NCBI GenBank assembly: GCA_049513695.1
Contig: JBEKVW010000013.1
Coordinates: 9,977 to 33,976 of the forward strand
Length of the DNA stretch: 24,000 nt
From: Dehalococcoidia bacterium
Lineage (GTDB): Bacteria; Chloroflexota; Dehalococcoidia; GIF9; UBA5629
Direction: 5' to 3'
Positions 6,285 to 24,000 of this stretch are shown piece by piece. The notes under the pieces are model-generated. The model was not told where the DNA came from. It worked only from the letters and a program-made list of their open reading frames with translations, and did not search any database. The translations under genes were made by a program, and so were the position numbers. The first letter of the stretch is position 1. Every line of letters begins with the position of its first letter.

Positions 6285-6372
6285 ATCGCCCTTGTAAAAG
6301 CGTCCAAAATATATATACTCTGTATTTTAAAAGAAATGCTGAATATATGAAATGCGGAGGAACTTGCGGAAG

Positions 6373-6957
6373 ATGAATATAAGATGCGCAGCACTGCTGC
6401 TGGCATTTGCCGGCTCGTTAGTGCTGTCCGCCTGCCAGCCTTCCCTGTCGCCCGCAATACAATCTCCGCCTGCAATTCAGGCCGGGGAACCCGGCATCCA
6501 GGCATTCTTCCCCAGGGCAGGACAGGACCCGGCGCCCATCCTGGTGAAGCTTTATAACGAGGCCTCAACCAGCCTGGATATCGCCATTTACAGCCTGACA
6601 CATCCCGATATCGTTAAAGCCATCGGCGATGCCAAACAGCGTGGAGTGCAGGTGCGCGTCATAACGGACAGTGATTCCGCGACGGGAAACACGCAGAAGC
6701 ATGCTGTGAACGATCTTCTGAACCTGGGCATCCCCGTGAAGGTCAACCTCCACTCCGGCCTCATGCATTTGAAAATGAGCGTGATCGACGGCAAAACCGC
6801 TACCATAGGGAGCTATAATTACACGCTGAGTGCCAGCCAGCAGAACGACGAGGTCATGGCAGTCGTGACGCAGCCCGCCTTCGTCAAAAGCTGCCAGGAC
6901 GAGTTCAACCGGTTGTGGGATTCACCCGGTTTGACGAACGCCAAAGCCTCGTATTGA
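6373..6957 (+). CDS. Secreted lipoprotein, single-HKD phospholipase D superfamily (Nuc-like endonuclease type)
   Basis: - HKD motif HLKMSVIDGKTATIGSYN (HxKx4Dx6GSxN) at 6766-6819.
- The small size with one HKD copy is as in Nuc-type homodimeric nucleases.
- Signal peptide MNIRCAALLLAFAGSLVLSAC with lipobox L-S-A-C.
- The start at 6373 is preferred because GGAGG lies at 6356-6360; the alternative ATG is at 6352. Confidence 0.82.
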   Translation: MNIRCAALLLAFAGSLVLSACQPSLSPAIQSPPAIQAGEPGIQAFFPRAGQDPAPILVKLYNEASTSLDIAIYSLTHPDIVKAIGDAKQRGVQVRVITDSDSATGNTQKHAVNDLLNLGIPVKVNLHSGLMHLKMSVIDGKTATIGSYNYTLSASQQNDEVMAVVTQPAFVKSCQDEFNRLWDSPGLTNAKASY

Positions 6958-6996
6958 TGAGTGAATTAGCACGCTAGCGCATAAGCCGCTAGCTAA

Positions 6997-7083
6997 TCCA
7001 TATCCGAAAACCCCAGCTATGGTATTAGGATAAGTAATCATATTTGGATGGCTGAGGAAATCGTTAATCTAACCATTCAATGA
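6997..7083 (+). pseudogene. Relic of a transposase C-terminus (left arm)
   Basis: The + frame reads SISENPSYGIRISNHIWMAEEIVNLTIQ*. The segment SNHIWMAEEIVNL is homologous to SDHIWTFSEIVKL in the longer relic at 8340-8507 on the opposite strand. There is no upstream transposase body (stop at 6994-6996). Confidence 0.5.
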
Positions 7084-7636
7084 ATGGTTTTTCATCAGCC
7101 ACAATAAATCTTTTACGGGCAGCTATAATTTTGCCATCCGCACATATAGTCATGTCAATTTCGCCTTCCCCTCTCGGCAAATCAATAGTATAGATATCAT
7201 CTTCATCTGCGGCTCTGGCTTTACCATATATAAATCCTGCTATCATTACTCTTGCCGCTAAGTTTGATGCTGGCAACATAATAGACTTGTATCGAGTAGT
7301 GAGATCATCACCAAAATAAATAAAACGTGCAGTAGGAATCAAAAACCCATGTCCCTCTAATTTCACGTCTGCGCTTAACGTCAATCTTTGAATAGTGTTT
7401 CTTTCAACATTAATCCATTTCAAAAATCTATTGTTAACGGGGAGATTTTGTAACTGAATGTATATTAAATACCCATCTCCTTGATAAGATACTAATATTT
7501 TGGGTTTCTGCCAGATCAGAAAAAGAGAAGGGACTATTATTGCCATCGCCAGTGCAACAATGGTGGCAAAAATCGTAATCCATTCCAAGGGTGGAGGTGG
7601 AGAAGTAAATAACCAATATGTCGTTTGATTATCCAC
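7064..7636 (-). CDS. Hypothetical N-terminally membrane-anchored protein (paralog of 7721-8362)
   Basis: 190-aa ORF in an AT-richer stretch. One hydrophobic helix (WITIFATIVALAMAIIVPSLFLIW) is followed by a soluble domain. Weak but collinear similarity to the divergent neighbour supports real coding. GTG start without an obvious SD, so the start is uncertain. Confidence 0.55.
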   Translation of the reverse strand: MDNQTTYWLFTSPPPPLEWITIFATIVALAMAIIVPSLFLIWQKPKILVSYQGDGYLIYIQLQNLPVNNRFLKWINVERNTIQRLTLSADVKLEGHGFLIPTARFIYFGDDLTTRYKSIMLPASNLAARVMIAGFIYGKARAADEDDIYTIDLPRGEGEIDMTICADGKIIAARKRFIVADEKPFIEWLD

Positions 7637-7720
7637 GTTTTAATTTTATCACGCCGCATTCAAAATGACCCACTACCCGCTAGCCTGTAATTCTTATAAG
7701 ATACGGGGTAAAATAGGTGC

Positions 7721-8362
7721 GTGGGGTTTGGGTTCTTTTTATTCGCCATCCTTCTTCTTATTTTGCTTGCCTTTACTGGTGTTTTTGGCAAATTCCCAGA
7801 CAGTTGGTCATGGACTGGAATTGTATTGGCGGGGCTTGGTATAGTCATGACAGCCCCAACCATATTCCAAATGATCTTGGGCGGTCCGCGTGTCGATGTT
7901 GATTTTCGCGATTATATGCAATCAGGCACTAAGTTATTACAAGTATTTTTCAATAATCCCCCAGTCACGAACCGAGTATGGCGGTTTCTTGGGGTTCATC
8001 GTGAGACGGTAGCTAGCCTCAGTGCCCAATTTCGCATTAGCGAAGTGGGGAGCGGAACGATTATTGTTCCTATCCATCAAGCACCCTTATATGCAGACGA
8101 TGCTGATAGTGATGCTTGTAGACAGCGGATTCCCTTACCTCCAACTTACAGTGTGGGCGCAACCGCGGCGATTATATTATGGGATACACCGAATAAATGC
8201 GCTGTTATTCCCCCGGATCGGTTGAGACAACCAATTATTCTAAAACCCGGATATTATCAGGCTCATATTCTATTATTGGTGGATGGCTTGCCTAAACAGG
8301 TTTTACGACGGTTTACCGTAGGGACAAAAGCTGACGATCTTACTTGGTCACGCAAAGCTTGA
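7721..8362 (+). CDS. Hypothetical membrane-anchored protein (paralog of 7064-7636)
   Basis: 213-aa ORF with two N-terminal hydrophobic segments (FFLFAILLLILLAFTGVF, IVLAGLGIVMTAPTIFQMIL) followed by a soluble domain collinear with the neighbour. Examples: FFNNPPVTNRVWRFLGVHRETVASLSAQ vs LQNLPVNNRFLKWINVERNTIQRLTLSA, and LLVDGLPKQVLRRFTVG vs ICADGKIIAARKRFIVA. GTG start, uncertain. Confidence 0.55.
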   Translation: MGFGFFLFAILLLILLAFTGVFGKFPDSWSWTGIVLAGLGIVMTAPTIFQMILGGPRVDVDFRDYMQSGTKLLQVFFNNPPVTNRVWRFLGVHRETVASLSAQFRISEVGSGTIIVPIHQAPLYADDADSDACRQRIPLPPTYSVGATAAIILWDTPNKCAVIPPDRLRQPIILKPGYYQAHILLLVDGLPKQVLRRFTVGTKADDLTWSRKA

Positions 8363-8507
8363 CTATTTCCGAAAATGTCCAAATATGATCGCTGATTCCT
8401 ACTGCCATTGCTGGGGTTCTTGGATGAGGATTAGCCAATGATTTGTGTGTCCGGGCAAAGTTGTAGAACGTGAAATGCAGAGCCAGGGCGTACCTATATC
8501 TTGAATC
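8340..8507 (-). pseudogene. Relic of a DDE-type transposase C-terminus (right arm)
   Basis: The minus-strand frame reads RYALALHFTFYNFARTHKSLANPHPRTPAMAVGISDHIWTFSEIVKLCVTK*. The YNFxRxHxxL...TPAMA...DHxW...E tail is a pattern I recognise from IS transposase C-termini; the family is uncertain, possibly IS1-like. The frame is closed by TAA at 8508-8510, so only about 55 codons survive. Confidence 0.6.
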
Positions 8508-8569
8508 TTATTTGAGAATCAATCGGTCTGCCGGGTAAACGACGCTAGAGGTTGTGCAGCACAACGAGA

Positions 8570-9937
8570 TCAGTTCTTCCAGCTCTTGACCAGGCTGGGG
8601 AGGTACGAGGGTATCTCGTTGGCCTCCCGAGGGCCGACTATGATTTCCCAGTCGGGCAATGCCTCGGTTAGCTCATGCCGTATGCGGGCCACCTTGCCGG
8701 GTATTACCAGCCTCCGGTGGTTGACCTTGCTCTCGATGCTGCATTTCTTGATGAAGGGGGCGATGTTGTCGCCGCTGAACTTGCCAGCCGCCCAGGCCGT
8801 CAGTACCCCCAGGCCGCCCGCCTCCTTGACGCACAGCCAGGAAGGGACCTTGCTGCTCTCTATCTCAGATGAGACGATAAAGTAGGTCAGCGCCCAGTTA
8901 GTAGTTATCAATACGGGGGAGCTGGCATCTGGGTTATTGATGGGGTAGACCTTCTCTTCCATGGACATGGGAATACGGGGATCCGTGTAAATATTCATCC
9001 TCTGCACCAGCAGCGGCAGCAGGGAATGCTCATCGATATCGGAAAGGACGATGATGCCGGCGTACTTGGTTATGAATGTTGAAGCCAGCAATATCTCGCG
9101 CTGCCTGTCCCCGGTCATAAAGCAGGGGAAGGCCACGGTGGGGTATCCCAGCGGCCTGAAGACCTGCTTGAGAGCCGCACGCCGTATGAGAGTCTGGTCC
9201 CTGATGGCCGACTGTAAATTCCTGGATCCCGGGTCCAGCAAAATATCCTCCAGCCCCGCTTCTTTGAGGCGGCTGGTCAGCGGCACCAGCGATTCCACAC
9301 CGGCGGCCTTGACCGCCACCACGGCGGGCCTGGCCTGGACGGCGCTAATGATTTTTTCCAGGTTCTGTGCGGTGACCGGGTATAGCACCGGCTTCCTCCC
9401 GGCACACAAATTGTGCGCATCCAGCAGGGCATCGGTATCGTCGGACATCAACATCAGGGGACAGTCGGTAACGGGCAATACTTTTTTAACCAGCGCTTGA
9501 TATGCAGCGCGGTCACCCGATGCGTGCCGCAGCGCCAGCATATCGGCCTTCAGCACCTTGCCCACCCAGTGAAACTGCAGCTCCTTCAGCTTCTTAATTT
9601 TGGCATCTACCGCGTCCGCCGGCTCGTCGTCCGAGATCAGCACCGCCATGCCCGGCTGGTGAATGAAGGTCTTCTCATGGCGGTAAAGCACCTGCTCGTC
9701 GCCTATAGTCAGGGCATTGGCGCCCATACCGACCGTAACCGGCTTGATGGGCGGGGAGAGGGCGTCCTCCAATTCGATCCTTACTTCGGGCGAAATATAA
9801 GGGCATCTATCGATGGCAATTCCGCCCGAAGCCAGCTTCATGGCAAATGCGAAACAGGTGGGCAGTCCGCACTCTTTACAGTTTTTCTTGCCGCCTTCGG
9901 GCAGCTTCTTAACTATATCTGTACCTTTGATCGCCAA
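8570..9937 (-). CDS. acsC: Corrinoid iron-sulfur protein, large subunit (AcsC / CdhE-like)
   Basis: 455 aa. N-terminal 4Fe-4S motif CKECGLPTCFAFAMKLASGGIAIDRCPY (Cx2Cx4Cx16C) followed by TIM-barrel and corrinoid-binding regions typical of the CFeSP large subunit. TTG start with AAGGAGAG upstream. 12 nt after the ACS stop. Confidence 0.9.
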   Translation of the reverse strand: MAIKGTDIVKKLPEGGKKNCKECGLPTCFAFAMKLASGGIAIDRCPYISPEVRIELEDALSPPIKPVTVGMGANALTIGDEQVLYRHEKTFIHQPGMAVLISDDEPADAVDAKIKKLKELQFHWVGKVLKADMLALRHASGDRAAYQALVKKVLPVTDCPLMLMSDDTDALLDAHNLCAGRKPVLYPVTAQNLEKIISAVQARPAVVAVKAAGVESLVPLTSRLKEAGLEDILLDPGSRNLQSAIRDQTLIRRAALKQVFRPLGYPTVAFPCFMTGDRQREILLASTFITKYAGIIVLSDIDEHSLLPLLVQRMNIYTDPRIPMSMEEKVYPINNPDASSPVLITTNWALTYFIVSSEIESSKVPSWLCVKEAGGLGVLTAWAAGKFSGDNIAPFIKKCSIESKVNHRRLVIPGKVARIRHELTEALPDWEIIVGPREANEIPSYLPSLVKSWKN

Positions 9938-9949
9938 GCGTCTCTCCTT

Positions 9950-11179
9950 TTAAACGGGCAGTTTAACCTCGCCCTTGACCCACGGGTGGCCCACGCGATC
10001 CAGGAACTCCCCAAGTTCCTCCACATTCCTGACGTCATTTTCCGTGGCTATCTTGTCGTATAAATCCATCGGGCAGGCGTCCCGGTAAAGCTCTTTGATG
10101 GCCTGCGGCATCCAGACGATCCTGTACCATCCGCCGTCGGCCTTGAGGAAGCTGGGTGAACGCAGGTATTCCAGAGCCATGCCCAGGTACCCTTCCACCT
10201 GGCGGCCCCCGCTGGTATCGCCGGCCATCTCGGTAAACGGCACGCCTACGACGGTGTCGCCCTCGAAATCACGGTTCACAATACCGAAGGCGTCAACCTC
10301 CGGTATATAGAAGCAGATGGACTGGAAGCAGCCGCAGGAGGTATGGGGATAACCAAAGGCGCTGTGTAAATACGTCTTATCATAGGCTCCCATCGATTTC
10401 TCCACGGCCAGCTTATTGACTCCCTCATATTCCCCCCTGATAGGGTCGATGATGAAGCCCTTCTTCACCCGCTGGATCGGCCCCTCGTTATCGAGCTGAT
10501 AGGCCGCCTTGCCGTCGAACCAGTTGATGGCGCCGCAGTTGGCGATGCGCTCCGGGGTAATGCAGCAGATATGGGTGGGAGCAAAGCTCTGGCAGAGGGC
10601 GCAGCTGTAAAACTCATCCACATCAGCCTCGCGCAGGCCGCGTATCTTTTCGTCACGGGTACGGTAAACCTCCATGGCCTTCTGCAGAAGCTCTTCGACC
10701 CTGGCGGGGTCGGTGATGATGGTGATCTGTATCTTTTCGATGATATCGATCTCGGACGTATAGAGGAAAATCAGAATCTCGCCAAGCGTCTTCAACGATT
10801 TCAGCCCTTTATTGAAGGACTCTTTTTTCAAACGCATCCAGACGTCCTGCCGCTGGTTCATATGGTAGAACCCCTCGATGTAATTCAAATATAGATGCAG
10901 GCGGCGTTCCAGGACCGGCTCTATATCCTTTTCCAGCCGCGCTCCCGCCACATCCACCAGCAGGGCGATAGGTTGGCTGCTGCCCTCAGGGATATCCGGT
11001 ATGTCCGGGCCGATTACCTCGACCTTTTCGTGCGTGACCTCTTCAGGCTTCTTAATCGTTACCAGCTCGAATTTGGACTTGACGTTGGGGCCGCCCAACT
11101 CGACCAACATGTCGGCCTTCCTGATGACCTCGCCCTCATATTGGGGCCCTATGTCAACCGGGAATACTCCGTCAGACAT
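9950..11179 (-). CDS. acsB: Acetyl-CoA synthase catalytic subunit, short archaeal CdhC-like form (lacks the bacterial AcsB N-terminal domain)
   Basis: 409 aa. It starts FPVDIGPQYEGEVIRKADMLVELGGP, like archaeal CdhC. A-cluster ligands are intact: CALCQSFAPTHICCITPERIANCG (Cys193, 196, 205/206, 215) and the Ni-binding HTSCGCF (Cys282-Gly-Cys284). Confidence 0.92.
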   Translation of the reverse strand: MSDGVFPVDIGPQYEGEVIRKADMLVELGGPNVKSKFELVTIKKPEEVTHEKVEVIGPDIPDIPEGSSQPIALLVDVAGARLEKDIEPVLERRLHLYLNYIEGFYHMNQRQDVWMRLKKESFNKGLKSLKTLGEILIFLYTSEIDIIEKIQITIITDPARVEELLQKAMEVYRTRDEKIRGLREADVDEFYSCALCQSFAPTHICCITPERIANCGAINWFDGKAAYQLDNEGPIQRVKKGFIIDPIRGEYEGVNKLAVEKSMGAYDKTYLHSAFGYPHTSCGCFQSICFYIPEVDAFGIVNRDFEGDTVVGVPFTEMAGDTSGGRQVEGYLGMALEYLRSPSFLKADGGWYRIVWMPQAIKELYRDACPMDLYDKIATENDVRNVEELGEFLDRVGHPWVKGEVKLPV

Positions 11180-11281
11180 ACCGCACCCGCCTTTTAGTTA
11201 ATATACGTTCTTCCATATCAATATTGACTATATATTATATCCGCAGGGATTGGGGTTATCCTAATGCCGATGGCCCGGTTT

Positions 11282-13576
11282 TCAATGGACGACCTCGTCC
11301 AGGGTCACGCTGGAAGGATAGGTGCCGATCAAAGTGGGCAGGGACAGCACCGGCTTCTCTTTCCAACCGGCCTCGTTCAGTTTTGCCTGCAGGTCTTTCT
11401 TATAGAAAATGGGTATATCCGAAGCTTTTCTCACGAATAGGCCCACATCTTCCGGCAACTTGCCGAAATACTGCTTGTGAAGTCCGATGTAATGGGTGAG
11501 CTTGGTCGAGCGCCCCTGCGGGGTATCGTTCTTGCGCATGCAGAGCCTGGCCAGCGCCACCATGGCGGCGCCCTTGTCGGCCAGCAAATTGAGCAAGTGC
11601 TCCGGAGACGGTTCACCGGTATCGACAGGCTTCTTCTCCCGGCCGTCCATCACGCTCCAGTCGGTTTCGCCCGGCCTGCTGAGATAAAGCCGGCCATATT
11701 TAATGCAGTGCGGCCCTACGATGACCGGTATGCCCAGCCGGTTGCAGCCGGTAGCCAGGGCCAGCTCCTCCTCGCCGCAGGCGCCCCAGGCCAACCCGCA
11801 GGCGCCGACGCGGTTGAGTATATAATCAGCGACCACTTCGTAGTTGGCCCTCAACGGCAGGGCGGCGAATATGCTGGCAATCTTGATGGCGGCCCCGGAT
11901 ATATGGGCAGCTGCTGTGCCGGACCCTATATTGACGATGCCACCAGCTTCGAAATCAGGCGGGTATTTCTCATAAATTGATTTATCGTCGGCATCCTTCT
12001 TCAATGCCGCGGCAATTGCAGACTCTCCTGCCAGCACCACCACGTATTTACGTTTGGCAAATTCCTCGGCTATCTCCGCGATATCGTCGGGCGACCCCGG
12101 ATAGTTCGAACTGCCGACGATGGCTATCACACCTGGTATGGTGCCCAGCACCAGCGGAGCGCCGACTTTCCTGATCTCCGTATCCATGACAGGGCCGCGC
12201 CCCACACGCATCTTGGCGGATTCCTGTCGCGCCGCCCCCTGCATCATGCGCAATACCGGCACCTGCCCTTTCACAGCGGCTTCGCATTTGCCGCAGCCTA
12301 TGCATTTTTCGAACACTTCTGCCAGCAGTCCGAACTCGTTATGCGCGGCGGCCTCGATGGCGCCGGCGATGGGCAGCTTGTTGGGGCAGGCTTCATCGCA
12401 CGGCTTGCAGGACTTATACTGGGCGGCCATCCCGGCCACCTCTTCCTGTTTTAAAATCGATTTCTTCCTGGAAGATGAGAGCTTAAGCGCAGCTTCCACG
12501 GCTACAGCAGCCGCCTTCCTGGGATCGAGCACCAGGGCCCCTTTCCCCTGATGAAGGTCGACCAGTATCTCCTCGGTATCCTTAGCCGTGACATCCGCGA
12601 ACCCATAAGCCGCCCGGGCATCCGTAGCAATGAAGGCCGCTCCACCGGCGGCCGTCTCGGCGGGTATATCCGTCAGCAAATTGCCGCCCCCGCACATCAC
12701 CACATCGGCCACACCCAGCCGCAGGATATAGAGCAGCCTGGATAACGGGCCTGCAATCCTGGCCCTGGAGCTGTAGCGAACCAGTTCGTGTCCTACCGGA
12801 CCCATGCCGGCCACCAGGACTTTATCCTCCAACCTGCTATTTTTAATGTAATCCACCAGGCAAACGGCCGAGACCGTATCGTTGCCGATAACAAGTATGA
12901 CCGGTTTGTCCATTGGAAGCGAGGCCCAGCCCACCTCAACCAGTGGCGTATCGGCATTGGAGGTCGGGAAGCCGAACCCGGATATCTGGGCGATATCCGC
13001 CGCCTCCATAGCTACATGGCTGAGCATGGAGGCCTGCAGCGCTTTGGACTCGAAATCCAGGTTGGAGCCTTCGATGCCCGTATTGGCTGCGGTAAGCAGC
13101 AGAGTAGTCTGATGCTCTATGTATGACAAAACCCTGTCCAGATCGCCCAGGGTGGCGGGCTTGAGTCCGATTACGGTCCTGATATGGGGGGCTTCGATGC
13201 TTACCTTATCGCCCGGCTCAAGGGTCATCTCCCTGCCTTTGACATCAATCAAATAGCCGACGATCCTCCTGGCCCTGGCCGTGGAAAGCGCTAGGCCCTC
13301 GCAGCACGACTGTAAATTGAGGCGCGCCTGCATGACGACGCCGTCTATGCCGCAGGAACCCTTCCTGCCGTCTGAGAGGTCGCATTCGCCGTAGGTACAC
13401 AGGTTACACCTGTCAGTGACGGGAACGTAAAGGGGCTTCCATGTCTGCAGCAGCCGGCGGTCCCAGTTCCTGAGATCGAGAATGCCGGGCAAGGGGGTGT
13501 GTCCTACCGGCTCCCAGCTGTCCTCGGCATGTATAAATTCCCGGGCTTCCCTGCCTTGCCGCTCTGTTTTAGCCAC
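11282..13576 (-). CDS. cdhA: CODH-fold protein, CdhA-like with ferredoxin-type insert; C-cluster and D-cluster ligands substituted (predicted non-catalytic)
   Basis: 764 aa. GTG start with AGGAGG 8 nt upstream. The N-terminus (HTPLPGILDLRNWDRRLL...RCNLCTYGECDL..GSCG) and overall collinearity match the archaeal-type CODH alpha subunit. B-cluster cysteines are kept. The HGHN, GICCTGNE, GCNN, TGC and GSC ligand motifs read VIGND, GMGPVGHE, VGSSN, LAGE and IGSGT (see findings). Confidence 0.85.
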   Translation of the reverse strand: MAKTERQGREAREFIHAEDSWEPVGHTPLPGILDLRNWDRRLLQTWKPLYVPVTDRCNLCTYGECDLSDGRKGSCGIDGVVMQARLNLQSCCEGLALSTARARRIVGYLIDVKGREMTLEPGDKVSIEAPHIRTVIGLKPATLGDLDRVLSYIEHQTTLLLTAANTGIEGSNLDFESKALQASMLSHVAMEAADIAQISGFGFPTSNADTPLVEVGWASLPMDKPVILVIGNDTVSAVCLVDYIKNSRLEDKVLVAGMGPVGHELVRYSSRARIAGPLSRLLYILRLGVADVVMCGGGNLLTDIPAETAAGGAAFIATDARAAYGFADVTAKDTEEILVDLHQGKGALVLDPRKAAAVAVEAALKLSSSRKKSILKQEEVAGMAAQYKSCKPCDEACPNKLPIAGAIEAAAHNEFGLLAEVFEKCIGCGKCEAAVKGQVPVLRMMQGAARQESAKMRVGRGPVMDTEIRKVGAPLVLGTIPGVIAIVGSSNYPGSPDDIAEIAEEFAKRKYVVVLAGESAIAAALKKDADDKSIYEKYPPDFEAGGIVNIGSGTAAAHISGAAIKIASIFAALPLRANYEVVADYILNRVGACGLAWGACGEEELALATGCNRLGIPVIVGPHCIKYGRLYLSRPGETDWSVMDGREKKPVDTGEPSPEHLLNLLADKGAAMVALARLCMRKNDTPQGRSTKLTHYIGLHKQYFGKLPEDVGLFVRKASDIPIFYKKDLQAKLNEAGWKEKPVLSLPTLIGTYPSSVTLDEVVH

Positions 13577-13588
13577 AGCATCAGCCTC

Positions 13589-14494
13589 CTAAATTTTTCC
13601 TTCTATGGCTTCCTTCAATAACCTGCAATTATCCGGGTGGCGCAATACCAGGATGTCTCCTCCGGCCAGCAGCAGGCTCATAGCTGTAACGCTTTCCCAA
13701 TGCATGCCCTGTTCCCGGTCGGCCCTGGCCTGGTTGGTCTTCCAGCATTCACCGCCCAGGTCGGCAATGATGGGCATCTGCATGGCCACATCGCCGAATA
13801 TAACTCCTATCTGCCGGGTGCGCTCCATGATGGTAAAGCTGTATTCCATGCCGTAACCCAGCGCCGAGCTCAGCGGGTCGATGACTATCCTCTCCGGCGG
13901 GAGCTGTTTCAACAATTTAACGTTAAGCTCCTTCTCCAGGTTGAGGTCGATGGGCGTCTGGGCAATGATGCAGTGCCCGTTTTCGGCCACCGCCCGGGCA
14001 AGGGCTTCGTAATTTTCTTTAACAGCGGGCCCCAGCAGGAGGTTCTCCCCTTTGCAGGCCACAGCCACCGCGGTGAGCACCTCAACATCCTTTTTATCAT
14101 CTCCACAGCCGTAGACGATCAGGGGAACATTCACCTTCGAGCTGACCTTCTTCGCCAGAGCGGCCGCCTCCGCTGCGGGGCGGTTCGCCCCCTGCGGGTC
14201 CGTTCCGTCAAGGTGCAGGCAGATTAGGTCAGCTCCCAAGCCGAGGCACTTTTGGGCCCATTTTACCGGATCAGAGACCACATCCTTATAAGGCTCCACC
14301 ACCCACTGAGCCCAGCCGGCAGCACCGTTATCATTAACTTCCAGCGCCACCAGCGGCCTGTTTACCACGCTGCCTTCAAAATAATGCAGGGGCAGGATAT
14401 TACCCCCGCCGATCTTCAGAGCACCCGCCCCTTTGCCCAGCGTTACTTCCTTGACCCTTCCAGTGTACGTCTCCAGAGGCGCTTTATAGTCCAT
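13589..14494 (-). CDS. acsD: Corrinoid iron-sulfur protein, small subunit (AcsD / CdhD-like)
   Basis: 301-aa TIM-barrel-type protein between acsE and the cdhA-like gene. The size, position and N-terminus (YTGRVKEVTLGKGAGALKIGG) are typical of the CFeSP small subunit. Only 13-nt gaps to its neighbours. Confidence 0.85.
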   Translation of the reverse strand: MDYKAPLETYTGRVKEVTLGKGAGALKIGGGNILPLHYFEGSVVNRPLVALEVNDNGAAGWAQWVVEPYKDVVSDPVKWAQKCLGLGADLICLHLDGTDPQGANRPAAEAAALAKKVSSKVNVPLIVYGCGDDKKDVEVLTAVAVACKGENLLLGPAVKENYEALARAVAENGHCIIAQTPIDLNLEKELNVKLLKQLPPERIVIDPLSSALGYGMEYSFTIMERTRQIGVIFGDVAMQMPIIADLGGECWKTNQARADREQGMHWESVTAMSLLLAGGDILVLRHPDNCRLLKEAIEGKI

Positions 14495-14507: not shown

Positions 14508-15386
14508 CTAGGATTCCAGCCATGCGTGAGAATAGAGCGCTTCACCCATCAGCACCCTGGCCGTTTTGACATAGTTCTTCTCTTTCTCCGGCAACTCGGC
14601 CGCATCGACCGGTTCCCCGTCCATAACCTTATAAATAAGGCTGCGAATAGCCGACTGACCGTCATGATTCAGCTCGATCAGCTCCGGGTCGAGCACATCA
14701 GCAATGGCCGAATAAAGCCCATTCTTCTCCAGCATCAGCATATAGGTGCGGTTGAGGATGCCGCGCAGGTCGGGCGGCGTCCCGTTGGAGACGTTGGAAA
14801 GGCCGACTACCGACTTAACGCCAGGGAGCAGGTCGGGCAGTATCTTGATGAACTCCAGCGCCTCGCGTACCTGTTTCTGATCGGCGCTCACCGGCAGGAT
14901 AATGGGGTCAATCCAGATATCCTCGGTGCCGATGCCCAGCTCATTGGCGTAGGCCACGGTATCCATAACGCTCTCCACCCGCGAATCAACGTCCGGCGGG
15001 CAGCCCTGGTCGGTTATCACGGAGATTATCACCTGTGTACGGTATTTAACTGCCAGCGGCATCATATTCGATTTGCTTTCGGATTTCCCCGAGGCCGAGT
15101 TCAACAGTGGCCGCTTCTTACATATCTTCAAACCGGCCTCCATGGCCAGGGGATTCATGGTATCCAGCGAGATGGGCAGGTCGGCCACCTCCTGGACGGT
15201 GTTTACCAGCCAGGCTCCGACCACTTCAGGGTCTTTGCGGGCCGGGCCGAGGTTTAAATCGAGGTAATCTGCTCCCGCTTTGGACTGTTCCCTGGCAAGC
15301 GACTGGATAGGTGCAGCATCCCGGTTCCTGACCGCCTCGCTAACAACCTTCGAGATGATATGGATATTTTCGCCGATTAAGATCAT
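14508..15386 (-). CDS. acsE: Methyltetrahydrofolate:corrinoid/iron-sulfur protein methyltransferase (pterin-binding domain)
   Basis: 292 aa. It starts MILIGENIHIIS...AGADYLDLNLGPA, the typical start of MeTr/AcsE pterin-binding TIM barrels. First gene of the acs operon on the minus strand. Confidence 0.88.
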   Translation of the reverse strand: MILIGENIHIISKVVSEAVRNRDAAPIQSLAREQSKAGADYLDLNLGPARKDPEVVGAWLVNTVQEVADLPISLDTMNPLAMEAGLKICKKRPLLNSASGKSESKSNMMPLAVKYRTQVIISVITDQGCPPDVDSRVESVMDTVAYANELGIGTEDIWIDPIILPVSADQKQVREALEFIKILPDLLPGVKSVVGLSNVSNGTPPDLRGILNRTYMLMLEKNGLYSAIADVLDPELIELNHDGQSAIRSLIYKVMDGEPVDAAELPEKEKNYVKTARVLMGEALYSHAWLES

Positions 15387-23366: not shown

Positions 23367-24000
23367 TCAGGAAGTTTTGTAGGATTTCAACAGAATGCGG
23401 ATCTCTTCGATGGATTTGCTGAGCTGTGAATCCACACTGATTTGAGAAGATATCTTTTCGCATCCATGAATCACGGTGGAGTGGTCCCGGTCGCCCAGGG
23501 CTCTGCCGATGTCGGAAAGGTTGCAATGGTTCTGCTGGCGCAGCAGGTACATGACGATATGGCGGGCCCGTGAGGTCTTTAAATCCCTTTTCCTGCTGGG
23601 GATATCCTCGGGCGAAATAGCATAGTAATCAGCCACGGCCTCGATTATGGTTGACGGTTGATAGCGGCCATTGTTCTGATTGGAGATCGAGATGAGATCG
23701 TTCAGTATATATTTGACCGAGTCCAGATCGGGATTGGAATTATTCAACCGGGCATAGGTTGCCAGGCGGATAAGCGCTCCCTCGAGCTCCCGGACGCTGT
23801 GGTGAAAATGCGTGGCCAGGAAATCCATGATGGAAGCATCAAACGAGGATTTCAATACCTTGGCTTTCGACTCGAGTACGGCAAGCCTGGTCTTATGGTC
23901 CGGCGGGAAAATATCCACCACCAGCCCGCCTTCCAACCTCGAACGGAGCCGCAGGTTGAAGCACTCTATCTCTTTGGGAGGCCGGTCCGACGAGATCGCT
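23367..24000 (-). CDS. dnaA: Chromosomal replication initiator DnaA, C-terminal part (5' end outside the window)
   Basis: The frame is open to the window edge (AISSDRPPKEIECFNLRLRSRLEGGLVVDI precedes the listed TTG at 23936). It has the AAA+ sensor region and domain IV with the DNA-binding signature RALGDRDHSTVIHGCEKI. Confidence 0.93.
   Translation of the reverse strand, partial: AISSDRPPKEIECFNLRLRSRLEGGLVVDIFPPDHKTRLAVLESKAKVLKSSFDASIMDFLATHFHHSVRELEGALIRLATYARLNNSNPDLDSVKYILNDLISISNQNNGRYQPSTIIEAVADYYAISPEDIPSRKRDLKTSRARHIVMYLLRQQNHCNLSDIGRALGDRDHSTVIHGCEKISSQISVDSQLSKSIEEIRILLKSYKTS

Follow-up and report, generated by a model that had tools for sequence, protein, structure and literature searches.

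A carbon monoxide dehydrogenase alpha subunit that lacks its catalytic cluster ligands, retained with acetyl-CoA synthase in Dehalococcoidia

The genome of a Dehalococcoidia bacterium (assembly GCA_049513695.1) contains, on contig JBEKVW010000013.1, a homolog of CdhA, the alpha subunit of carbon monoxide dehydrogenase (CODH), in which none of the residues that hold the catalytic C-cluster remain. The stretch of DNA analyzed here, referred to as the window, comprises 24,000 nt at positions 9,977 to 33,976 of the forward strand of that contig, and all coordinates given for genes and motifs of the window are positions within it. The gene, designated cdhA*, lies at 11282..13576 on the minus strand, encodes a full-length protein of 764 amino acids with the fold of CdhA and no ligands for either the C-cluster or the D-cluster, and is the third gene of the minus-strand operon acsE-acsD-cdhA*-cdhC-acsC. 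CdhA* is probably (at a rough probability of 60%) a catalytically dead alpha subunit that has been selected as the obligatory structural partner of CdhC, an acetyl-CoA synthase (ACS) that has no domain A1. The evidence for this proposal comes from the pattern of residues lost and kept in CdhA*, from its phylogeny and selection, and from the surface that it would present to CdhC.

A CdhA family member without C-cluster ligands

By sequence and fold, CdhA* is unambiguously a member of the CdhA family (Cdh-type Ni-CODH clade A). In phmmer searches of the PDB, it matched near its full length the CODH component of "Ca. Ethanoperedens" (8RIU, chain 8riu_A; E = 1e-200) and the CdhA proteins of Methanosarcina thermophila (9C0Q; 4e-167) and Methanosarcina barkeri (3CF4; 2e-156). 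It scores 832.6 bits against TIGR00314, the NCBIfam cdhA equivalog model, and thereby passes the cutoff of 781.3; public records name its homologs CODH alpha subunit, and it is 57 to 60% identical to canonical Dehalococcoidia CdhA. Structure prediction, suggested as a check in a preliminary description of the window made from its sequence alone, points the same way: an AlphaFold2 model (predicted template-modeling [TM] score 0.81, mean predicted local distance difference test score 73) was matched by Foldseek to CdhA structures (8riu, 9c0r, and 3cf4) with TM scores of 0.84 to 0.86 and to CooS-type CODHs with scores of about 0.5. CdhA* resembles both archaeal-type CdhA (3CF4, 9C0Q-T, and 8RIU) and canonical Dehalococcoidia CdhA in fold, domain order, B-cluster motif, and ACS-contact residues, and it shares its operon slot with the latter. 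It differs from canonical CdhA in lacking the C-cluster ligands, the acid/base residues, the D-cluster cysteines, and an accompanying gene for the epsilon subunit, and its E/F ferredoxin insert has been lost either by half or completely.

A homolog database search returned 577 matches, and the counts of degenerate and canonical sequences given below come from the best 120 of these. Among them, 44 protein clusters retained 0/5 C-cluster cysteines, 75 were canonical, and two were partial. Ligand positions were called from residue-by-residue HMMER alignments to 8RIU, 9C0Q, and 3CF4 and from two independent MAFFT alignments with the 75 canonical bacterial CdhA sequences. All alignments agree that CdhA* keeps none of the six C-cluster ligands. 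The C-cluster histidine is replaced by N232, the Cys-Cys pair by G259-P260 (with P260 at the position of the ligand), and the remaining four cysteines by N299, S489, E518, and G553. The former ligands of Rossmann fold 1, N232 and P260 (with G259), fall at 12797..12883, next to a newly conserved H263. The loop CGGGN (C295..N299; 12680..12694) stands in place of canonical TDEQC and has N299 where the ligand cysteine was, and the former ligands of Rossmann fold 2, S489, E518, and G553, are encoded at 11918..12112. The three histidines of the acid/base motif AHxAHGRH have become S98, R101, and R104, and C600-GEEE (residues 601-604; 11766..11779), in place of canonical SQKA, turns the acid/base lysine into E603. 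All of these segments are read from the minus strand.

Both the C-cluster positions and those of the acid/base residues are invariant in 75/75 canonical bacterial CdhA sequences. They are equally invariant in the archaeal loci, except for one acid/base histidine in two divergent loci (L056 and L067), and the archaeal exceptions as a whole (Methanothrix and L056/L067) are confined to the D-cluster, one acid/base histidine, and one insert cysteine. Because the replaced positions are invariant in canonical homologs and the replacements are common to the whole degenerate clade, they do not look like the product of chance. The preliminary description, which used the ligand motifs of CooS-II as a ruler, had called the same C-cluster replacements, and these stand apart from one residue number (G553, not 552). 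The position of Cys333, which it had found ambiguous, is N299 by alignment. It was also right that the acid/base histidines and lysine are lost, although the counterpart of the lysine is E603 and not L605. The count of cysteine or histidine at the six ligand positions, for which it had named five or more as refuting, is zero.

With 0/6 ligands left, CdhA* lacks the catalytic features that define a Ni-CODH and is, as far as can be judged from sequence, noncatalytic for CO/CO2, as had been claimed. It is very improbable that the protein remains a CO dehydrogenase in which other residues hold an unconventional cluster. The fold is intact and some new cysteines and histidines have appeared, but the ligand positions are now occupied by Gly, Pro, Asn, Asp, or Glu, and the acid/base His and Lys residues, the D-cluster, and the epsilon subunit have all been lost. 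In the clade D enzyme ChCODH-V, a single Cys295-to-Glu replacement is described as sufficient to abolish CO oxidation, and the protein is experimentally inactive (Jeoung 2022, as cited in PMC13240472).

The degenerate form is a conserved clade under purifying selection

In neighbor-joining trees, the fully degenerate sequences form a monophyletic clade of their own within CdhA (200/200 bootstraps), which sits on a long stem as sister to canonical CdhA from Dehalococcoidia, Syntrophales, and Deltaproteobacteria. A second survey, in which one genome per GTDB species was scanned with two CdhA peptides, found the degenerate form in 24 species represented by metagenome-assembled genomes (MAGs), one of them a closed 2.46-Mb chromosome (OY970123.1). 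All but one of these MAGs (23/24) are labeled Dehalococcoidia, Dehalococcoidales, Chloroflexota, or "Chloroflexia," and their sources include fen, lake-sediment, soil, and other metagenomes. A 3.8-kb contig carrying a degenerate cdhA operon at 85% identity (L044; JBAZKX010000316.1) was binned as Desulfobaccales, which probably reflects misbinning rather than transfer. Members of the clade fall into two length classes, one of about 764 amino acids with a remnant of the ferredoxin insert that would hold one cluster (13 clusters) and one of about 685 to 698 amino acids from which the insert is deleted (31 clusters, or about 70%).

The possibility that cdhA* is a decaying pseudogene or an annotation or assembly artifact is refuted by selection and distribution. 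The loss of all catalytic residues is the sole observation in its favor. The reading frame runs uninterrupted from a GTG start codon at 13576, preceded at a distance of 8 nt by the ribosome binding site AGGAGG (13585..13590, minus strand), which overlaps the TAG stop codon of acsD. The gene is thus full length and packed tightly against acsD, as originally described, with the minus strand now added. Nei-Gojobori ratios of nonsynonymous to synonymous substitution (dN/dS) between cdhA* and six orthologs were 0.072 to 0.096 (0.07 to 0.10 when rounded) and could not be distinguished from those of acsC, acsD, acsE, cdhC, nuoF, and cooC in the same pairs. Low ratios on a par with those of its operon neighbors indicate that cdhA* is maintained by purifying selection. 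Mean column identity across 29 clade members was 76%, and the same gene recurs in the 24 independent MAG species, including the closed chromosome. The earlier judgment that this is not a decaying pseudogene is therefore upheld by both the dN/dS values and the monophyly of the 44 clusters.

Two other sequences have lost only part of the catalytic apparatus. P0116 (693 amino acids; locus L078, 2039-4120) is sister to the dead clade with 200/200 bootstraps; it has no adjacent cdhB, no D-cluster cysteines, and no insert, and it keeps 3/5 C-cluster cysteines. Its sequence suggests a half-decayed intermediate between canonical and dead CdhA. P0097 (locus L077, 6001-8298) branches within the canonical clade and still has cdhB, and only the His/Cys1 pair is missing from it. 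This pattern resembles groups A-4 and A-6 in the structural grouping by Inoue et al. and fits an A-6-like form. The neighborhood of the P0097 locus matches that of the window in containing RNase H, gyrB, CTP-transferase, and obg genes.

Operon context and loss of the epsilon subunit

Canonical and degenerate loci have a common gene order, acsE-acsD-cdhA-...-cdhC-acsC-nuoE-nuoF-cooC. In the window, by family and homology searches, acsE (14508..15386) encodes the methyl-tetrahydrofolate:corrinoid methyltransferase, acsD/cdhD (13589..14494) the small subunit of the corrinoid iron-sulfur protein (CFeSP), and acsC/cdhE (8570..9937) its large subunit. The cdhC gene (9950..11179) encodes an A1-less ACS of 409 amino acids with an intact set of A-cluster motifs. 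These genes are followed by a nuoE-like gene (6284-5781), a nuoF-like gene (5784-3865), and a gene for a CooC/AcsF-like ATPase (3860-3099), which were assigned by homology and are syntenic in canonical and degenerate operons. All are on the minus strand.

Wherever a canonical bacterial locus continues beyond cdhA, an open reading frame (ORF) of about 184 amino acids homologous to archaeal CdhB, the epsilon subunit, is located between cdhA and cdhC. The window has in its place an AT-rich spacer of 102 nt (11180..11281). With tblastn, cdhB was found in 44 loci, each with a canonical cdhA operon, and it was found neither in the window nor in any degenerate locus. The description of the ACS/CFeSP operon as otherwise intact thus holds for the partner genes that are present but not for cdhB, which has been deleted between cdhA and cdhC. 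Since cdhB is missing from every degenerate locus and present in the canonical ones that continue beyond cdhA, the losses of the catalytic cluster, the D-cluster, and the epsilon subunit go together. In the methanogen enzyme, the epsilon subunit buries the D-cluster (PMC11474084).

No second CODH was found near the degenerate operons: an hmmsearch with a CdhA profile across all ORFs of the window and of 75 loci detected no second prismane-family ORF in the window or within ±10 kb of the degenerate loci. The scan with two CdhA peptides likewise turned up no canonical CdhA in the 24 MAGs, among them the closed chromosome; it did not extend to CooS-type genes elsewhere in the genomes.

ACS-contact residues and the proposed role of CdhA*

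The 2024 cryo-electron microscopy study of the M. thermophila CODH/ACS complex provides a basis for interpreting the retained protein (PMC11474084). The CdhC-type ACS of that complex lacks domain A1, which caps the A-cluster in bacterial AcsB. CdhA fills the role of A1 with its C-terminal extension and with Rossmann fold 2, the latter building half of the A-cluster pocket. Arg500 of CdhA is hydrogen bonded to a Gly that coordinates the distal Ni through its backbone nitrogen; the CO alcove and the gate of the channel are made up of Leu504, Val507, and Phe601; and Tyr616, Arg620, and Ala602 contact ACS beside the A-cluster. The ACS residues contacted by these three and by Phe601 are Ser194, Phe195, and Lys322 (PMC11474084, supplemental Table 3).

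These contacts, taken from the main text and supplemental Tables 3 and 4 of that study, were mapped onto CdhA* using 9C0Q sequence numbering that was verified on 14/14 residue identities. The equivalents of Arg500, Leu504, Val507, Phe601, Ala602, Tyr616, and Arg620 are R469, A473, V476, F570, A571, Y585, and R589, respectively. In all degenerate (44/44) and canonical (75/75) sequences, R469, V476, F570, A571, Y585, and R589 are unchanged, and the Leu504 position is an equally invariant A473 in both bacterial clades. R469, mapped to the A-cluster hydrogen bond, and A473 and V476, mapped to the CO alcove and gate, lie on helix alphaA of Rossmann fold 2 (M464..G478; 12143..12187, minus strand). 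F570, A571, Y585, and R589, which are ACS contacts by equivalence, lie in the helix alphaB region (11810..11869, minus strand). Identity between the consensus sequences of the degenerate and canonical clades is 0.71 in Rossmann fold 2 and 0.73 in the C-terminal domain, compared with 0.54 in the N-terminal domain, 0.49 in Rossmann fold 1, and 0.10 in the ferredoxin insert. The best-conserved regions are those that in M. thermophila dock ACS and form the CO alcove. On the other side of the putative interface, residues 5-401 of the CdhC encoded 102 nt downstream of cdhA* align to M. thermophila ACS, and the protein keeps the A-cluster cysteine motifs, the equivalent of the alcove residue Phe195, and the equivalents of C278-G279-C280. 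The best 120 homologs listed in a search with CdhC were all MAG proteins.

It is proposed that CdhA* uses Rossmann fold 2 and its C-terminal domain to dock CdhC and supplies in trans the job done by domain A1 in AcsB and by Rossmann fold 2 of methanogen CdhA, which would be to complete and gate the A-cluster pocket. R469 would be the arginine hydrogen bonded to the Ni-coordinating Gly, A473, V476, and F570 would form the hydrophobic CO alcove and gate, and Y585 and R589 would provide contacts. The complex would carry out ACS chemistry only, interconverting acetyl-CoA with CH3-Co(III)-CFeSP, CO, and CoA. The methyl group would be connected to tetrahydrofolate through AcsE, with CO passing to or from the surroundings. 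The alignments establish the loss of the catalytic residues and the retention of the contact residues; formation of a CdhA*-CdhC complex, dependence of ACS on CdhA*, and the direction of flux are inferred.

The closest analogy to such a role is domain A1 of AcsB itself, a cofactor-free Rossmann (prismane-like) cap over the A-cluster, which Biester et al. propose arose by duplication of CODH Rossmann fold 2. The corresponding region of CdhA* is likewise cofactor free and related to this fold, and residues 422-622 show weak but significant homology to A1 as found in bifunctional ACS (NF040764, E = 1e-16; 6yua, E = 3e-4). Arg142, Val149, and Phe229 of AcsB A1 have their equivalents in R469, V476, and F570, and CdhA* is proposed to do what A1 does, namely, to dock on domain A3, build the CO alcove, and control the access of gas. 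Unlike A1, CdhA* is a separate polypeptide in which the entire CODH architecture and a motif for a [4Fe-4S] B-cluster are kept, and this form arose independently and recently within the Dehalococcoidia. A metabolic parallel is found in the same class. Dehalococcoides mccartyi has been described as cleaving acetyl-CoA by ACS/CFeSP without CODH and releasing CO (Zhuang 2014, as cited in PMC7005905 and PMC7918482), an incomplete Wood-Ljungdahl pathway in which ACS and CFeSP occur without a functional CODH in the operon and CO is a free intermediate, as would be the case here. According to these citing accounts, D. mccartyi reportedly has neither a CODH gene nor acsE, whereas in the window a dead cdhA and acsE have been retained.

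Remaining iron-sulfur motifs and the former active site

The B-cluster motif C57-x2-C60-x4-C65-x9-C75 (13352..13408, minus strand) is kept in CdhA*. Canonical CdhA has the D-/B-cluster arrangement C-x2-C-C-x-C, and T54 and N58 now occupy the positions of the D-cluster cysteines. CdhA of Methanothrix, a functional enzyme, resembles CdhA* in having D or T at positions 54 and 58 while keeping C57, C60, C65, and C75; because it retains these four in the absence of the D-cluster motif, they can be assigned to the B-cluster, and their spacing, C-x2-C-x4-C, is like that in CooS. Unlike CdhA*, the Methanothrix protein retains the C-cluster and the E/F clusters and is accompanied by the epsilon subunit. 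Functional-looking CdhA sequences from a number of loci (L049-L058, L061, and L063 from Methanothrix; L056 and L067) lack one or both D-cluster cysteines and keep all other ligands. The D-cluster cysteine pair is thus not strictly defining for CdhA, as Methanothrix CdhA also does without it. The ferredoxin-insert remnant (12272..12409, minus strand) contains C390, C393, C397 (as C397-P), C425, C428, and C431, with V435 at a lost position. By the logic of 2x[4Fe-4S] ferredoxins, C397, C425, C428, and C431 would constitute one complete four-Cys set, the other cluster having been lost.

The preliminary description had correctly counted the four B-cluster cysteines and six of the eight insert cysteines. 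It was also right that the D-cluster is lost, but its argument from P48 and R56 fails, since canonical CdhA also has no cysteines there; the CooS-II ruler was rejected for this cluster in favor of the CdhA and Methanothrix patterns. Of its suggestion that the protein serves as a scaffold and/or an iron-sulfur conduit, the scaffold part is favored by the invariant contact residues and the intact CdhC, and the conduit part is weakened by the absence of the D-cluster and the deletion of the insert in most members.

A role for CdhA* as an electron conduit or redox activator, in which the B-cluster and the insert cluster pass low-potential electrons to the A-cluster or the corrinoid protein for reductive activation, for example from the NuoEF-like flavoprotein encoded downstream, is unlikely. 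It would account for the B-cluster cysteines, which are present in 44/44 members of the clade, and for the complete four-Cys set in 13/13 members that bear the insert; the nuoE- and nuoF-like genes are kept in degenerate operons under purifying selection, and no RACo-type activator was seen among the genes of the window. However, the D-cluster is gone and the insert is deleted in 31/44 clusters, which leaves the B-cluster with no obvious surface route. In the methanogen complex, about 35 Å already separates the C-cluster from the A-cluster (PMC11474084), a distance that makes direct transfer from the B- to the A-cluster unlikely, and the nuoEF-like genes are found equally beside canonical cdhA and are therefore not specific to the degenerate form.

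The emptied C-cluster cavity may alternatively have been rebuilt as a metal or cation site for new chemistry, Ni handling for the A-cluster, or CO sensing or retention, which seems rather improbable. The clade has gained conserved C239 (93%), H263 (98%), C295 (91%), C600 (80%), and C624 (95%) beside the former ligand positions, together with D233, D/E518, E602, E/D603, E604, and R104 (residues spanning window positions of approximately 11703-12880). H263, C239, C600, and C624 are already present in the intermediate P0116, and the CooC/AcsF-like Ni-insertion ATPase is encoded in the operon. On the other hand, only 2/45 strictly clade-specific substitutions are to cysteine, with no clear enrichment, C600 is Ser in seven members, and the Gly and Pro at ligand positions and the pairing of Arg with acidic residues fit equally well a plain filling of the cavity by a salt-bridge and packing plug. 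C239, H263, C295, C600, and C624, with D233, D/E518, and E602-604, are accordingly put forward only as a doubtful candidate for a new site that would make CdhA* an active module in Ni delivery or storage or in CO binding or gating. If such a site existed, a new cofactor site would be evolving on a CODH scaffold, and P0116 would be a surviving intermediate.

The structural-partner proposal is preferred to these alternatives, and several observations weigh against it. A pure lid function does not account for the universal conservation of the B-cluster cysteines; most simply, the B-cluster, and the one insert cluster in the 764-residue subgroup, would be structural, a role at the dimer interface being the simplest guess. 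The newly gained cysteines and histidines and the acidic cluster in the old pocket could mark a new cofactor site, and the persistence of the nuoEF-like genes in the operon hints at a remaining redox function. The interface contacts are transferred by analogy from a methanogen structure that is only 36 to 37% identical to CdhA*, and the interface residues are equally invariant in canonical CdhA, so that their conservation amounts to retention rather than to a new role. The direction of carbon flow may also differ from that proposed if the genome encodes a separate CooS-type CODH.

Relationship to known degenerate CODHs and implications

Homologs of CODH with incomplete active-site signatures have been described. 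Inoue et al. (2019) distinguished structural groups A-4 and A-6, whose Ni-CODH signatures are partly incomplete, and ChCODH-V of clade D is another such case. Like CdhA*, these proteins deviate from the canonical ligand set, but the loss is limited to the His/Cys1 pair (along with the acid/base residues in A-4 and A-6) or to a single cysteine, and Cys2 to Cys5 are kept, in contrast to the CdhA* clade, which lacks all six ligands. Recent surveys discard sequences that lack C-cluster cysteines (PMC13240472). In the literature searched, the only such groups were A-4 and A-6, with their partial degeneration, and none of the papers described a CdhA that has lost every ligand and is kept alongside ACS; the CdhA* clade is, judging from its sequences, an apparently undescribed pseudoenzyme form of CdhA.

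If the proposed role is correct, the clade would provide a natural test of the 2024 cryo-electron microscopy finding, as a lineage in which CO oxidation has become dispensable and the CODH shell has not. Retention of the shell in the absence of catalysis predicts that CdhC cannot work alone and would lend independent support to the role of CODH Rossmann fold 2 as a surrogate for A1. The stepwise series from canonical CdhA through P0116 to the dead form, along which the D-, E/F-, and C-clusters disappear, as does the epsilon subunit, makes visible a possible route from enzyme to accessory domain, similar to the way in which A1 of AcsB is proposed to have arisen from a Rossmann domain of CODH. 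There is also a consequence for annotation. Because cdhA* passes the NCBIfam cdhA cutoff and its homologs bear the CODH name in public records, metabolic reconstructions would over-call the carbonyl branch (CO2 fixation and homoacetogenesis), which is unlikely to operate here, and this affects Dehalococcoidia of peat, lake sediment, and soil. By analogy with D. mccartyi, these organisms may release or depend on free CO.

Other features of the window

Downstream of cooC on the minus strand, the window contains a DUF3786 gene (3051-2650), which among the recovered loci is linked only to degenerate-cdhA operons, and a gene (2631-859) for a fused alpha/beta glutaconate-type CoA-transferase-like protein of 590 amino acids (1poi_A, E = 3e-17; 1poi_B, E = 5e-6). 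Both follow cooC in 15 to 16 degenerate loci (L001-L008, L036, L038, L041-L048, and L060) and in none of the three canonical bacterial loci for which downstream flank was available (L010, L011, and L015). This linkage hints at a tie to acetate or acyl-CoA metabolism.

The interval between acsC and nuoE (6285-8569) is a variable insertion containing a phospholipase D-like nuclease gene (6352-6957, plus strand) and two divergent ORFs (7064-7636, minus strand; 7721-8362, plus strand) with hydrophobic N termini and no Pfam match; in orthologous loci, the spacer ranges from about 0 to 3 kb. Upstream of the operon, a minus-strand group at 16279-18813 includes a gene for a putative ArsR-type regulator (18813-18487), a gene for an S-adenosylmethionine-dependent methyltransferase with a Cys-rich N-terminal region (17567-16716), and two ORFs (16719-16279 and 18423-17875) that by eye are C_GCAxxG_C_C-like. 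Together, these genes have the look of a cluster for arsenic or redox stress. Further along, a minus-strand ORF of 189 amino acids (23367-23936) encodes only a DnaA C-terminal helix-turn-helix domain (PF08299). The flanks of the window hold gyrB, obg, mutL, and RNase H genes, which indicates that the DNA is chromosomal.

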